A stretch of 64,000 nt of DNA from Candidatus Falkowbacteria bacterium. GTDB lineage: Bacteria; Patescibacteriota; Patescibacteriia; CAIXNZ01. Shown in pieces: positions 1 to 42,575 of the stretch (positions are counted from its first letter, which is position 1; every line of letters starts with the position of its first letter). Both the position numbers and the translations under genes were made by a program. The notes under the pieces were generated by a model. That model was given only the letters and a program-made list of their open reading frames with translations. It ran no database searches and was not told the origin of the DNA. The stretch is taken from contig JAFGMD010000021.1 of the NCBI GenBank assembly GCA_016927685.1, forward strand, positions 21,913 to 85,912, written 5' to 3'.

Positions 1-521
1 ACATTGGCGTTGGAATAGCTATTGCTTGCATTGGATTTGTACTGGGCGGCATATTTGGCGGATTGGGTATATTTAGTCTTGTTCTAAGCGGAATTTTAAT
101 AGCTTTTTTCGGTATTTTTATGCCTGCCAGGACAAAAGAGGGGGTATTAGCCAAAGAGCATATTTTAGGATTAAAAATGTATCTAAATGTTGCTGAGAAA
201 GCTAGGATTGAATTTCATAATGCACCAGCTAAAAATCCAGAAACATTTGAAAAATATTTGCCCTTTGCCATGGTTTTGGGCGTGGAAAAAGCATGGGCTA
301 AACAGTTTGAAGATATATATAATACCAAGCCTGACTGGTATAATGATCCATCAACTTCCAGTTTCAATTCCATGGCGCTTGTTAATAATTTAAATACTTT
401 TAGCGCTGAAGCGCGCTCCACTTTATCTTCTGCACCAGCTTCTGCTTCCAGCGGTTCTAGCGGCTTTGGCGGTGGCGGTTCTGGCGGAGGAGGCGGTGGG
501 GGTGGGGGAGGATCTTGGTAA
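1..521 (+). CDS. C-terminal part of a membrane protein with a Gly-rich tail (DUF2207-like); 5'-truncated by the window edge
   Basis: The reading frame is open from the window start (IGVGIAIACIGFVLGG...). Hydrophobic helices are followed by a poly-Gly/Ser C-terminus (GFGGGGSGGGGGGGGGGSW). The family assignment is from memory of DUF2207-type C-termini. Confidence 0.45.
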   Translation, partial: IGVGIAIACIGFVLGGIFGGLGIFSLVLSGILIAFFGIFMPARTKEGVLAKEHILGLKMYLNVAEKARIEFHNAPAKNPETFEKYLPFAMVLGVEKAWAKQFEDIYNTKPDWYNDPSTSSFNSMALVNNLNTFSAEARSTLSSAPASASSGSSGFGGGGSGGGGGGGGGGSW

Positions 522-5897: not shown

Positions 5898-6021
5898 CTC
5901 CTTTTATATATTTCTTTTATCAGCTTGAGAATATTTTGTCAATATAATATTAATTCATTGACTTGAAGATTTTTTTGTGCTATTATATCATATATAAAAC
6001 GAATTTCACTTCGTTTTTTTA

Positions 6022-6038
6022 TTCCGGGGTAGCGCAGT
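6022..6038 (+). repeat. 17-nt direct repeat copying the 5' end of tRNA-Asn (pseudo-tRNA fragment)
   Basis: ttccggggtagcgcagt at 6022-6038 is identical to 6344-6360, the 5' acceptor/D-arm of the tRNA. It is followed by two small hairpins (ccgccAGAggcgg, cagccTTCGgctg) and a ttaagggc motif that recurs after the tRNA at about 6461. Confidence 0.6.
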
Positions 6039-6092
6039 TTCCGCCAGAGGCGGATCAGCCTTCGGCTGAGGCTGTCTTAAGGGCTTAAAATT

Positions 6093-6338
6093 ATGTATTA
6101 TGTTTACGTATTAAAAAGCTTAAAGAATGGCAAAAGATATGTTGGCTTTACCAGTAAACAATTGAATGCTAGATTTAAGGAACACAATGCTGGTTCTAAT
6201 AAATGGACACGAGAAAATAGACCTTTTATAAATATATATTCAGAAGAATATAAAACAAAAACCGAAGCAATGAAACGCGAAAAATTTCTAAAATCTGGGC
6301 AAGGAAGAAAAATTTTAGATAGTATTATCGATAAGTAA
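6093..6338 (+). CDS. GIY-YIG nuclease family protein (small URI-domain, COG2827-like)
   Basis: 81 aa; YYVYVL...GKRYVGFT...RFKEHN...REKFLK matches the GIY-YIG core (GIY, YIG, Arg, Glu). It lies between the tRNA 5' repeat copies. Confidence 0.8.
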   Translation: MYYVYVLKSLKNGKRYVGFTSKQLNARFKEHNAGSNKWTRENRPFINIYSEEYKTKTEAMKREKFLKSGQGRKILDSIIDK

Positions 6339-6344
6339 TAATTT

Positions 6345-6419
6345 TCCGGGGTAGCGCAGTGGTAGCGCAGTTGGCTGTTAACCAATTGGTCGTGGGTTCG
6401 AATCCCACCCCCGGAGCCA
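6345..6419 (+). tRNA. tRNA-Asn (anticodon GTT)
   Basis: Manual fold: acceptor TCCGGGG/CCCCGGA, D-arm GCGC-AGTGGTA-GCGC, anticodon stem GTTGG/CCAAT with loop CTGTTAA (GTT), T-arm GTGGG-TTCGAAT-CCCAC, discriminator G and an encoded CCA. Confidence 0.85.
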
Positions 6420-8006
6420 TTCTGCACGAACAGAGGCGAGAGCCTCTGTTTTTGCTTTGTTTAAGGGCAGTATCTTTGGTTCTAACCTTAGATATTCTTT
6501 TTCTAAGACTGAATAACTATTTTTTATTGGGAGAAACCAATTATTGGCGGAAATAGTGAGTTTCCCGTCTTTCATCAAAAAGTTCGAGCCTAAAGCCATT
6601 ACAATGCTTTTCTTGGCTTGTAAATCTCCCAATAAGAAGTTTTTGTAAGCATAAGTAGCAAAGTTAAAGGTATTTTCAGTCAATTCTAACCAACGCTCTG
6701 CTCTGGCTTCGGTCTCCCGTAATTTTTCTTTTAGCTGAATTATTTTTGATTGGAGTAAATTTTTTTCTTTGGTAAAAGCTTCATCATCAATCAGCTCCCT
6801 ATATCGCATTTTGGTAAGCTCATCAATTTCTTTTTGGGTTTTTAGCAAATCAATGCTTAAGCTTTCGTGAATTTTACTTCGGTCTTCAATTTCCTTATCA
6901 TTTGACTGATTTAATACTCCCAAAGCCCAATCTCTAAAATCTGGTAAAATTGTAATGCTTTTTAGTTCATCCAAGATTTGATTTTCTAATTCTTCCTCTC
7001 TGATAACTTTTTTTTGGGAGCAATTTACTCTTATTGTTTTTCTGGTGCAATGGTAGTAAGTATATTTTTTAATCACCCCCGTGCTTTTAATAAACTTCTT
7101 TTTAATTTCAGCCGTATAAAGACAACCGCATTCAGCACATCTGATAAGTCCAGTAAAAGCGAATTTATATTTTTGCGGTCTTGGCTTGCCCTTTTTGCCA
7201 AGTAAAATCTGCACTCGGTCAAATTCTTCCAATGTAATAATTGGTTTGTGATTGCCCTGATATTGTTTGCCAGCCCAATCAATAATGCCAGCATAGAAAA
7301 TATTGTTAAAAATTCTGTATATCCCGCTTTTAGATAATTTGTTATCGCCAATCCTTTTATATTTTTTAGTTCTAAAGCCCCATTCATTATTAGCTAATTC
7401 AAGAATTTTAGGCGGTGTATAATTGCCAGTCAGCATTAAATCCCACATTTTCCTAACCAAGTTAAAACGCTCTGGGTCTTCAGCGATTGTTTTATTTTCT
7501 TTATCGTTGACATAGCCAAGGGGAGCTAAATTGGGCAACCAGCCTTTTTCTAATTTACTTTCCAAACCTCTTTTAGTATTTTTCTTTAAATCAAGGATGT
7601 ATTGATTGGCAACGCCAGTTTCAACACTAAAAAGCAGAACATTGTCATCTGGGAGATATTGCCTATCTATTGTTTGAATTGATTTAAGCGTCCCTTGCTG
7701 TAAAAGCCAGCCTAATTTACCGCTATCAATCGGATTTCTTGAAAGGCGGTTTATTTGCCAGCATAAAATCCCATCTGCTTCGCCTTGCTCTATTTTTTGT
7801 ATCATTTCATCAAATAGGGGTCTGTTATAGGGTTTCTTGGCAGATTTGGCTTCAGTATAAATCTTTTTAATGCTTAAATTCGTTTCTTGAGCTAATTTTT
7901 TTAAGCGGTTGATTTGGTCATCAATTGACTGGACTTGGCGGTCTTCACTTTCAGATGATTTTCTGGCGTAGAGAAAATATTTGATTTTTGATTTATTTTC
8001 GGTCAT
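6378..8006 (-). CDS. large serine recombinase (phage-integrase type; resolvase catalytic domain + recombinase domain + zinc ribbon + coiled coil)
   Basis: N-terminal resolvase motif (YARKSSESEDRQVQSIDDQ with catalytic Ser, WQINRLSRN), a Cys cluster (CAECGCLY...YYHC) and a C-terminal coiled coil. The last 14 codons (WLRGWDSNPRPIG) are the reverse-strand reading of the tRNA T-arm and acceptor; the stop codon falls in the anticodon loop. Confidence 0.85.
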   Translation of the reverse strand: MTENKSKIKYFLYARKSSESEDRQVQSIDDQINRLKKLAQETNLSIKKIYTEAKSAKKPYNRPLFDEMIQKIEQGEADGILCWQINRLSRNPIDSGKLGWLLQQGTLKSIQTIDRQYLPDDNVLLFSVETGVANQYILDLKKNTKRGLESKLEKGWLPNLAPLGYVNDKENKTIAEDPERFNLVRKMWDLMLTGNYTPPKILELANNEWGFRTKKYKRIGDNKLSKSGIYRIFNNIFYAGIIDWAGKQYQGNHKPIITLEEFDRVQILLGKKGKPRPQKYKFAFTGLIRCAECGCLYTAEIKKKFIKSTGVIKKYTYYHCTRKTIRVNCSQKKVIREEELENQILDELKSITILPDFRDWALGVLNQSNDKEIEDRSKIHESLSIDLLKTQKEIDELTKMRYRELIDDEAFTKEKNLLQSKIIQLKEKLRETEARAERWLELTENTFNFATYAYKNFLLGDLQAKKSIVMALGSNFLMKDGKLTISANNWFLPIKNSYSVLEKEYLRLEPKILPLNKAKTEALASVRAEWLRGWDSNPRPIG

Positions 8007-25680: not shown

Positions 25681-25714
25681 AAACCCGCCCGGCTAAAGCC
25701 GAGGCGGGTTTTTT
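25681..25714 (+). terminator. intrinsic terminator (copy 1 of a near-identical pair)
   Basis: aaacccgcccggctaaagccgaggcgggttttttatt. Confidence 0.6.
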
Positions 25715-25781
25715 ATTTGACAAACCTCAATTTCAAATGTTAAATTAGGGTATTCGTACTTTGAAAATAAGGAGGTAATAA

Positions 25782-27184: not shown

Positions 27185-27220
27185 AACCCGCCCGACTAAA
27201 GCCGAGGCGGGTTTTTTATT
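27185..27220 (+). terminator. intrinsic terminator (copy 2, 1 mismatch to copy 1)
   Basis: aacccgcccgactaaagccgaggcgggttttttatttt. Confidence 0.6.
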
Positions 27221-42183: not shown

Positions 42184-42575
42184 CGAGGAATCCAAAACAT
42201 CTGATATATGAAACAATATTGCGTTTATATAATGACCAACAAAATCGACTCAGTTGACTATACTGGAATAACAAATGATTTATTTAGAAGAGTCTATGAG
42301 CACAAAACTCATTTTAATGAAAAAAGTTTTACCTCAAAGTATAATATAAATAAATTAGTATATTTTGAAGAATATAATAATCCCAAGCAAGCCATTAACC
42401 GAGAGAAGCAAATCAAGGGCTTGAGTCGGGAAAAGAAATTTAATCTAATTAAAACAATAAATCCTAATTTTAATGACTTAGCAAGGGATTGGTATAAAGA
42501 TAACCAGGCCGAGCATAAGGAACAACCGACTTAACCTAGGTTATAGATTCCACGCTGCGCTCTGAATGACAGTTG
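42163..42575. mobile_element. TIR-bounded element carrying a GIY-YIG nuclease gene (putative autonomous member of the MITE family seen at 44967-45050)
   Basis: The left arm gtcattccgagcgttagcgaggaatcc (42167-42193) and the right arm ggttatagattccacgctgcgctctgaatgacag (42539-42572) are about 80% identical to the two arms of the 84-bp MITE. The GIY-YIG ORF replaces the central loop of the MITE. Confidence 0.55.
42208..42534 (+). CDS. GIY-YIG nuclease family protein (COG2827-like)
   Basis: 108 aa; CVYIMTN...DYTGITNDLFRRVYEHK...FTSKY...LVYFEEY...REKQIKG matches the GIY-YIG core and is paralogous to the 6093..6338 protein. Confidence 0.8.
   Translation: MKQYCVYIMTNKIDSVDYTGITNDLFRRVYEHKTHFNEKSFTSKYNINKLVYFEEYNNPKQAINREKQIKGLSREKKFNLIKTINPNFNDLARDWYKDNQAEHKEQPT

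Follow-up and report, generated by a model that had tools for sequence, protein, structure and literature searches.

A small GIY-YIG nuclease gene and a double-hairpin module beside tRNA genes of Patescibacteria: a possible selfish cassette

We analysed a 64,000-nt stretch of contig JAFGMD010000021.1 from a Candidatus Falkowbacteria bacterium (the window; GC 34%), in which a small gene for a GIY-YIG nuclease lies between a displaced 5' fragment of a tRNA-Asn gene and an intact copy of that gene. An earlier note on this DNA, made from the sequence alone, had reported a 17-nt repeat, an 81-aa GIY-YIG open reading frame (ORF) and a tRNA-Asn, and all three lie where it placed them. The 17-mer TTCCGGGGTAGCGCAGT occurs exactly twice in the window, at 6022-6038 and at 6344-6360, with 0.04 matches expected by chance when up to 3 mismatches are tolerated; its second copy is the start of tRNA-Asn(GUU). 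The intact tRNA gene (6345-6419, + strand), found with ARAGORN and scoring 74.9 bits against Rfam, encodes its CCA end and is the functional copy. The locus opens with a sigma-70-like promoter (5958-5986, +; TTGACT, 17 nt, TATTAT, with a TG extension), presumed to be the native tRNA-Asn promoter, now ahead of the displaced 5' fragment. Direct reading of the sequence gives a leader hairpin, AAACGAA/TTCGTTT, and then a T-run (5996-6021, +) between promoter and tRNA fragment. The fragment itself is non-functional and comes in two parts. Part A, TCCGGGGTAGCGCAGTT (6023-6039, +), corresponds to nt 1-28 of the gene minus one 11-nt repeat unit, and part B, GGCTGT (6070-6075, +), to nt 29-34 (canonical 30-35). 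They are separated by a strand-symmetric 30-nt module, hereafter M (6040-6069; TCCGCC-AGA-GGCGGA / TCAGCC-TTC-GGCTGA). A 17-nt spacer, CTTAAGGGCTTAAAATT (6076-6092, +), with a possible weak ribosome-binding site AAGGG, leads into the 81-aa gene (6093-6338, +; Pfam PF01541, E=2.3e-16), which encodes a single-domain, UPF0213/COG2827-like GIY-YIG nuclease of the Slx1 lineage and ends in its own stop codons, TAA TAA. Behind the tRNA, a sequence CAGAGGC-GAGA-GCCTCTG with a T-run (6428-6451, +) reads as the intrinsic terminator of the tRNA/cassette transcript. An Rfam search of the window returned tRNA only and nothing over 6022-6092, even at E up to 5. No group I intron (RF00028) was found in the window at gathering or E-value thresholds, and the downstream tRNA is uninterrupted.

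The upstream block reads TCCGGGGTAGCGCAGTT, TCCGCCAGAGGCGGATCAGCCTTCGGCTGA and GGCTGT, that is, tRNA-Asn nt 1-34 with M between nt 28 and 29, shortened by an 11-nt deletion. This composition is at odds with the earlier note, which had taken the block for a tRNA-deleted duplicate of the locus. What part A lost is one 11-nt unit of a tRNA-internal repeat, GTAGCGCAGT(G/T), by a slippage deletion. The closest relative (locus L081/L082, protein 91% identical) has the full 28 nt, TCCGGGGTAGCGCAGCGGTAGCGCAGTT, then the same insert and GGCTGT; another relative, L087, shares the short form of the window. In the window, the sequence flanking M matches the adjacent tRNA over 12 nt on the 5' side and 6 nt on the 3' side, and the displaced fragment ends exactly after canonical nt 35, i.e. 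at the 35/36 position. The earlier note had also seen duplicated hairpin and ttaagggc motifs on either side of the tRNA. The shared 8-mers are present and colinear, with cagaggcg at 6045-6052 and 6431-6438 (offset 386) and ttaagggc at 6077-6084 and 6461-6468 (offset 384), an arrangement reached in ~5e-5 of shuffles. The upstream cagaggcg belongs to M, which is conserved across the family, and the downstream cagaggcg makes up the stem of the tRNA terminator; L081 retains neither match, and the view of these motifs as a duplicate of the locus is unsupported.

The promoter and leader of the window are also kept in L081. The leader hairpin with its T-run is terminator- or attenuator-like, precedes the first tRNA-derived nucleotide and is found at L081 608-632. 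The synonymous divergence (dS) of the ORF from L081 is 0.36; despite this, the spacer is the same in L081 save one G, and the 70-nt upstream block shows zero substitutions between the two. The ratio of nonsynonymous to synonymous divergence (dN/dS) of the ORF is 0.10 against L081 and 0.23 against L087 and, as judged from these values, the ORF is under purifying selection. The terminator hairpin of L081 is homologous to that at 6428-6451, with a compensatory change. In L081, the promoter and leader are followed by TTCCGG, a 59-nt remnant and the 28-nt fragment with M. This 59-nt stretch (L081 631-696; reverse complement in L087), upstream of the fragment, is like the 3' end of a decayed GIY ORF (caagctcaggac...agataat...), resembling a fossil of an older cassette layer. 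The window locus looks like a trimmed derivative of a layered locus of the L081 kind.

Genomic loci of 80 close homologues (56-74% identity; L001-L080) were fetched, which with the window makes 81 loci, from Patescibacteria and other phyla. The recurrent order is promoter, partial tRNA 5' copy with M, short spacer, GIY-YIG ORF and intact tRNA. A tRNA of one of ten isotypes lies directly downstream in 71 of the 81 loci. ARAGORN called a same-strand tRNA directly downstream in 56, at most 30 nt away in 48 of these (Asn 32, Ala 7, Val 6, Ile 3, Pro 2, Phe 2, and Met, Arg, Lys and Thr 1 each); group I introns interrupt the tRNA-Asn of a further 11 loci, and in 4 others the contig ends within the tRNA. 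M is located within 200 nt upstream of the ORF in 66/81 loci, 10-29 nt from the ATG in 55 of these, and the full range of M-to-ATG distances is 8 to 70 nt. Its insertion points in the tRNA are nt 8/9, 12/13, 17/18 or 28-30; after M, tRNA sequence resumes mostly for 5-8 nt and gives way to an AT-rich spacer and then the ATG. In 52/81 loci, the 5' flank of M agrees with the adjacent tRNA over at least 8 nt, whether that tRNA is Asn, Ile, Ala, Met, Pro, Phe, Lys, Val or Thr. In 36 of these 52, the entire segment from nt 1 to the insertion point is identical to the adjacent tRNA, and identity usually ends within 0-4 nt of tRNA position +1. These flanks bear out the proposal of the earlier note that duplication of the tRNA 5' end accompanies insertion of a mobile or recombinogenic GIY-YIG cassette, and the search it suggested, for other GIY-YIG genes beside tRNAs with partial tRNA duplications, found them at ten isotypes.

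Since the repeat tracks whichever tRNA adjoins, it is neither a chance match nor a promoter element, and the promoter-element alternative to an insertion-associated repeat is thereby excluded. The view of the repeat as a coincidence, or as a conserved promoter or leader element of the tRNA with no relation to the ORF, has the short length of the repeat in its favour and nothing more. Against it stand the expectation of 0.04 matches, the variation of the repeat with the adjacent tRNA and its extension to 28 nt elsewhere (L081, L012, L031, L048 and L078), so that its probability is close to nil. Sites that look like promoters are overrepresented ahead of the 5' fragments across loci, with 37% scoring at least 9 as against 6% in control windows. 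In 33/81 loci, the ORF lacks its own stop codon, reads tRNA nt 1-7 and stops on T8-A9-G10, which is universally conserved (e.g. L054 3001-3245, L018, L031, L048), so that cleavage by RNase P would give a non-stop mRNA.

The intron-bearing tRNA-Asn genes beside a GIY gene (L022, L039, L040, L042, L044, L050, L053, L069, L072, L075 and L080) carry RF00028 introns of 54-95 bits, placed after ...CTGT, a position known in Patescibacteria as the 35/36 intron site. Most Asn loci have a displaced fragment that stops at this very nucleotide. A survey of tRNA introns in this phylum describes the group I introns found at tRNA-Asn 35/36, with HNH and not GIY-YIG endonucleases, and makes no mention of the cassette, GIY-YIG, duplication or hairpins (PMC13011429). 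The cassette shares with these introns the host phylum, the tRNA and the position at which its fragment ends. Unlike an intron-encoded endonuclease gene, it has no ribozyme in the window, and its ORF is upstream of a complete tRNA. A link between the free-standing nuclease and the endonuclease-less tRNA-Asn introns is possible: the cassettes might work in trans on the group I introns at 35/36, most of which encode no endonuclease.

The neighbour of the tRNA on its other side is a serine-recombinase ORF (6378-8006, - strand) that ends in the tRNA-Asn T-arm, its last residues, WLRGWDSNPRPIG, being the tRNA reverse complement. The L081 recombinase (1063-1557), 40% identical, ends at the same place with the same 13 residues. 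This serine-recombinase element family seems, on these shared ends, to target the 3' end of tRNA-Asn, the end of the gene overlapping the att site. The earlier note had made the tRNA a site shared by the recombinase and the GIY-YIG insertion. The overlap, over the 3' 42 nt of the tRNA, is confirmed; the recombinase nevertheless belongs to a separate element on the tRNA 3' side. An att duplication by this large serine recombinase or another integrase, with the 17-nt repeat as the att core, draws on that overlap and on the standing of tRNA genes as classic integration sites. However, it is the 5' end of the tRNA that is repeated while the recombinase is on the 3' side, and the 322-bp interval from the tRNA copy to the tRNA codes for the GIY-YIG protein only, with no tyrosine or serine recombinase. 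The window has no second copy of the tRNA 3' end, and the same 5' duplication recurs at dozens of loci. We therefore regard an att duplication as highly improbable.

To define M across the family, candidates were extracted with only the four GCC/GGC cores fixed, which gave 70 distinct 30-mers. Of the pairs, the six left unconstrained follow Watson-Crick rules in 66-70 of the 70 sequences and show two-state covariation (C-G 44 / A-T 25; A-T 39 / C-G 30; T-A 35 / C-G 31). Pairing holds in 99.2% of cells, and compensatory cells number 102 as against 35 in shuffles, with 0/500 shuffles reaching 102. A single long hairpin, which is favoured by the RNA minimum-free-energy fold of the single sequence taken alone, pairs worse than shuffled controls across the family and was rejected. 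M thus consists of two 6-bp hairpins that abut, each with a 3-nt loop. The first loop reads R-N-A (A9 in 68/70) and the second T-N-Y (T22 in 69/70), so that the reverse complement of M keeps the same layout. A covariance model of M, R1, has one hit in the 64 kb, which is the window M (51.1 and 50.6 bits on the two strands, E ~6e-11). The terminator at 6428-6451 was considered as a copy or degenerate form of M and rejected, as it has no R1 match and is an ordinary homologous terminator in L081. Folded as DNA, M gives -11.3 kcal/mol on either strand with identical folds (z ~ -4). G.T wobble occurs in 2 of the 420 free cells and A.C in 5. The strand symmetry and the near-lack of wobble argue for selection at the DNA level, beyond the RNA level alone. 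The GC content of M is 67%, as against 34% for the genome.

M occurs 89 times in ~400 kb of loci: 64 copies are at most 150 nt upstream of a GIY ATG, 21 at most 400 nt downstream and 4 elsewhere. Two of the last four are solo copies in frame within protein-coding genes, one inside a uvrC-like gene (L051 1024-1053), where it adds SAKGGSAPGG, and one inside a dnaG primase gene (L026 1248-1277), where it adds PARGGSAFGG. Judging from these in-frame copies, M is able to insert on its own.

The cassette family also bears marks of turnover. Tandem cassette units are found in L038, L050, L066 and L071. In L003, L014, L019, L023, L024, L026, L047, L055, L059 and L067, the intact tRNA is followed by M and then by a 3' part of a tRNA, and these downstream 3' pieces with M mirror the upstream pieces. 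The two flanking pieces of L026 match one another and not the central intact tRNA, and the tRNA-derived flanks of L002 and L023 mismatch the local tRNA; such mismatched flanks are compatible with co-conversion. Two Nomurabacteria tRNA-Ile genes have differing M sites (L001 8/9, L002 17/18). Nearest protein neighbours share the M-site class in 33/50 cases (permutation mean 0.30, maximum 0.61) and the isotype in 27/41, and one protein clade of at least 78% identity includes both Pro-17 and Asn-29 sites, which share the junction GCGCAGTT/GGCT. Contig ends lie at most 300 nt from the GIY gene downstream in 15/80 loci and upstream in 1/80, which fits repeats or strain heterogeneity where the assemblies break, at the tRNA or at a tandem-unit junction. 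The tandem units, remnants, chimeric flanks and contig breaks together point to a cassette that is probably selfish and recombinogenic.

The mirrored pieces bear on an account in which M is itself a mobile cis-element of a transposon-like kind, comparable to mitochondrial double-hairpin elements and GC clusters. A dimer of the GIY-YIG protein would bind M and cut each strand a few nt outside it; the ORF, with or without a tRNA copy, would enter the staggered cuts, duplicating M and its immediate tRNA flanks, and recombination between repeats would later trim the locus to its form in the window. Symmetric cuts at M by a dimer would explain both the constant distance of 5-9 nt and the mirror-image pieces, in which an upstream nt 1..n, M and 5 to 9 nt are answered downstream by 4 to 12 nt, M and nt n+1..76. 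L047 and L026 have M-bearing repeats on either side of the GIY gene and intact tRNA. The likeness of M on both strands, which R1 scores equally, also agrees with this account, as do the scarcity of wobble (2/420), which speaks for DNA-level selection, the solo in-frame copies in the uvrC-like and dnaG genes and a protein fold nearest to nucleases of Holliday junctions and branched DNA. On the other hand, M follows the intact tRNA in ~10 of the ~50 loci with enough downstream sequence, and none does so in the window. Its insertion is precise, with no target duplication of its own, the flanking copies sometimes differ (L026), and we know of no GIY-YIG-only transposase. On balance, we find such a transposon-like element unlikely.

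A role for the gene in the host was weighed against the same anatomy. The small GIY-YIG protein would have a cellular function and be co-transcribed with the tRNA, the fragment and M forming a leader for regulation or processing (for instance an RNase target, an attenuator or a stabiliser of the 5' end). The purifying selection on the ORF (dN/dS 0.10-0.23) is in keeping with this, as are the unchanged 70-nt upstream block at a dS of 0.36 and the promoter ahead of the fragment, and the tight abutment of ORF and tRNA would couple RNase P processing to translation. Such an operon is hard to reconcile with ten isotypes, at least four M positions, tandem copies, decayed remnants and chimeric flanks, or with an M-ATG distance that varies from 8 to 70 nt. 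An RNA element would have no need of a strand-symmetric, wobble-poor M, and M is also found within protein-coding genes. A domesticated operon with a regulatory leader is thus less likely than a selfish cassette, and we consider it improbable.

Because no empty site was seen, insertion is inferred from comparative anatomy. The earlier note had proposed looking for the uninterrupted arrangement at this locus in relatives, and none was found: the syntenic relatives L081/L082 and L087 all carry the cassette. The search covered homologues of the neighbouring 153-aa gene, of which seven were looked up; L087/L088 alone were syntenic, with the cassette present. A metagenome scan with the conserved leader pattern returned the L082 contig alone and no empty site. 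The variation in tandem copy number and the contig breaks give indirect hints of polymorphism.

We performed a comparison of the GIY-YIG protein with known sequences and structures. Y5, Y16, R27, H31, E63 and a C-terminal KSGQGRK motif are invariant among 30 homologues. A profile search of the PDB gave as sole sequence matches 1YWL (2.8e-8) and 1ZG2 (5.4e-8), both uncharacterised UPF0213 proteins. The AlphaFold2 model (predicted local distance difference test score 92.7) comprises a three-stranded sheet and helices. Its top Foldseek hit is 1ZG2, followed by At-HIGLE and Slx1 with query-normalised TM-scores of 0.65-0.69, and then by I-TevI and UvrC, which score lower. The Pfam match, the conserved Tyr/Tyr/Arg/His/Glu and the alpha/beta core place the protein in the GIY-YIG superfamily, and a single domain with sequence and fold like EF2693 and BH0048 places it with the stand-alone UPF0213/COG2827 proteins. 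A separate DNA-binding domain (NUMOD, helix-turn-helix or zinc finger) is absent, the 81 aa being filled by the catalytic fold and one C-terminal helix.

We cautiously favour, as somewhat probable, the explanation that 6023-6344 represents a selfish cassette, built around the GIY-YIG gene, which invaded a tRNA-Asn gene on its 5' side in a homing-like manner. In the proposed mechanism, the nuclease, which belongs to the Slx1/HIGLE/UPF0213 branch of shape-recognising nucleases, would cut either at M or beside it, or within tRNA DNA. The break would be repaired by recombination with the conserved tRNA sequence as homology arm, and repair would copy the cassette into cognate tRNA genes, with partial duplications and tandem arrays as by-products, as with SegB (see below). 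The host would stay viable because an intact tRNA copy remains beside the cassette. The ORF would be expressed by read-through from the tRNA promoter, with RNase P freeing the tRNA; the cassette would thus borrow the promoter, the RNase P processing and often the T8-A9-G10 stop of its target. A broader claim, which we hold more tentatively and consider possible, is that the minimal GIY-YIG protein and M represent an undescribed class of bacterial mobile element, in which a shape-recognising nuclease and a cruciform-forming cis-module home into tRNA genes and split them while an intact copy is kept. Full-text literature searches found no published description of the cassette.

Several points weigh against a selfish homing cassette. 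No empty, cassette-free allele turned up, since the cassette is present in all three of the closest relatives that share the neighbouring gene, and no vector of spread was found either: IMG/VR gave distant matches only (at most 46% identity) and the INPHARED phages three (at most 41%). We know of no nuclease activity or target for this subfamily, and the 81-aa catalytic domain offers no obvious sequence-specific recognition. The escape of the intact tRNA copy from cleavage is not accounted for. Simple homing alone fails to explain three features: the 5-9 nt that separate M from the truncated end whatever the tRNA position, the start of the duplication at about tRNA +1, and the matching of the acceptor stem after a jump between isotypes. 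Finally, the conserved ORF and upstream block are also compatible with a function useful to the host.

Among known systems, the cassette would appear to work most like a Seg-type free-standing homing endonuclease gene, although without the DNA-binding domain of that class; SegB has a length of about 220 aa. As in the Seg genes, the GIY-YIG gene is beside tRNA genes and outside any intron. SegB is a free-standing phage GIY-YIG endonuclease that cuts inside tRNA genes, with tRNA-Asn preferred, and drives tandem tRNA-segB amplification by way of microhomology that the gene shares, at its 3' end, with the tRNA 5' end; it is inherited with its flanks and recognises a 27-bp site around the T-psi-C motif (PMC2330249, PMC13096335). 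Its C-terminal DNA-binding part has a NUMOD3 motif, and the protein is much longer than 81 aa (PMC2330249). SegB is phage-borne and lacks both a hairpin module and an obligatory partial copy of a tRNA; the cassette is chromosomal in Patescibacteria and its 81-aa protein is single-domain, with a fold nearer to Slx1/HIGLE than to I-TevI.

The best sequence and fold matches are the UPF0213/COG2827 proteins (EF2693, 1YWL; BH0048, 1ZG2; YhbQ/YazA type), which have a single GIY-YIG domain of 80-100 aa. Those with solved structures are uncharacterised structural-genomics targets, and their identity to the cassette protein is ~30%. To our knowledge, no link to tRNA or to a hairpin module has been reported for them. 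The nearest characterised folds are those of Slx1 and At-HIGLE, structure-selective nucleases that cut branched DNA and Holliday junctions (PMC9071465; PDB 6SEH, 7WME), targets of the shape that an extruded M would present. These two are eukaryotic, larger, have extra domains or the partner Slx4, and are not mobile, so that the likeness is confined to the catalytic core.

Short GC-rich hairpin insertions in AT-rich genomes are known as the mitochondrial double-hairpin elements (DHEs) of Allomyces (Paquin et al. 2000, cited in PMC2800124) and the GC clusters of yeast (PMC4478555), and GC palindromes flank Neurospora mitochondrial tRNA genes (Yin et al. 1981, cited there). M is like the DHEs and GC clusters in its precise insertion, sometimes in frame; those elements stay in the transcripts and are thought to be mobile and recombinogenic. 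They are dispersed, with many copies per genome, whereas M has one copy in 64 kb and 4/89 copies away from a GIY gene. Allomyces DHEs are said to occur alongside a mobile endonuclease ORF that has a duplicated end of atp6. The cassette is also like tRNA-targeting phages and integrative and conjugative elements in that a partial tRNA duplicate flanks the insert and an intact tRNA is regenerated. Those elements use tyrosine or serine recombinases, and what they duplicate is the tRNA 3' part; the cassette has a duplicated 5' part, measures ~320 bp and encodes a nuclease only. REP/RAYT and IS200/IS605 elements differ in the associated protein, which is an HUH (Y1) transposase and not a GIY-YIG nuclease.

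Should the homing explanation hold, a selfish gene would be living compactly in an essential single-copy gene of a reduced genome, and the widespread, uncharacterised UPF0213/COG2827 mini-nucleases would gain their first biological context. The cassette would be a bacterial counterpart of the mitochondrial double-hairpin and GC-cluster elements and a hidden driver of fragmentation, duplication and exchange of tRNA genes in Patescibacteria. It would also explain the frequent contig breaks at these tRNA loci and the partial tRNA genes in annotations. The small nuclease and the defined 30-nt DNA module form a directly testable pair for enzymology.

The window encodes a second GIY-YIG ORF at ~42208-42534 (+), of ~108 aa, with no M and no tRNA nearby. 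The earlier note had taken this second copy as a sign that the nuclease family is currently mobile in this genome; it is instead a distant paralogue, with 32% protein identity and no M, and is uninformative about present mobility. It is flanked by the GC-rich, hairpin-like sequences cattccgagcgttagcgaggaatc upstream and attccacgctgcgctctgaatga downstream, and a similar sequence, cattgcgagcggagcgaagcaatc, is found upstream in L022. Two weak R1 matches elsewhere in the window (25684-25715 and 27187-27218) were at chance level and were rejected as relatives of M. They are ordinary repeated terminators, near-identical to each other (AACCCGCCCGRCTAAAGCCGAGGCGGGTTTTTT) and 1.5 kb apart.

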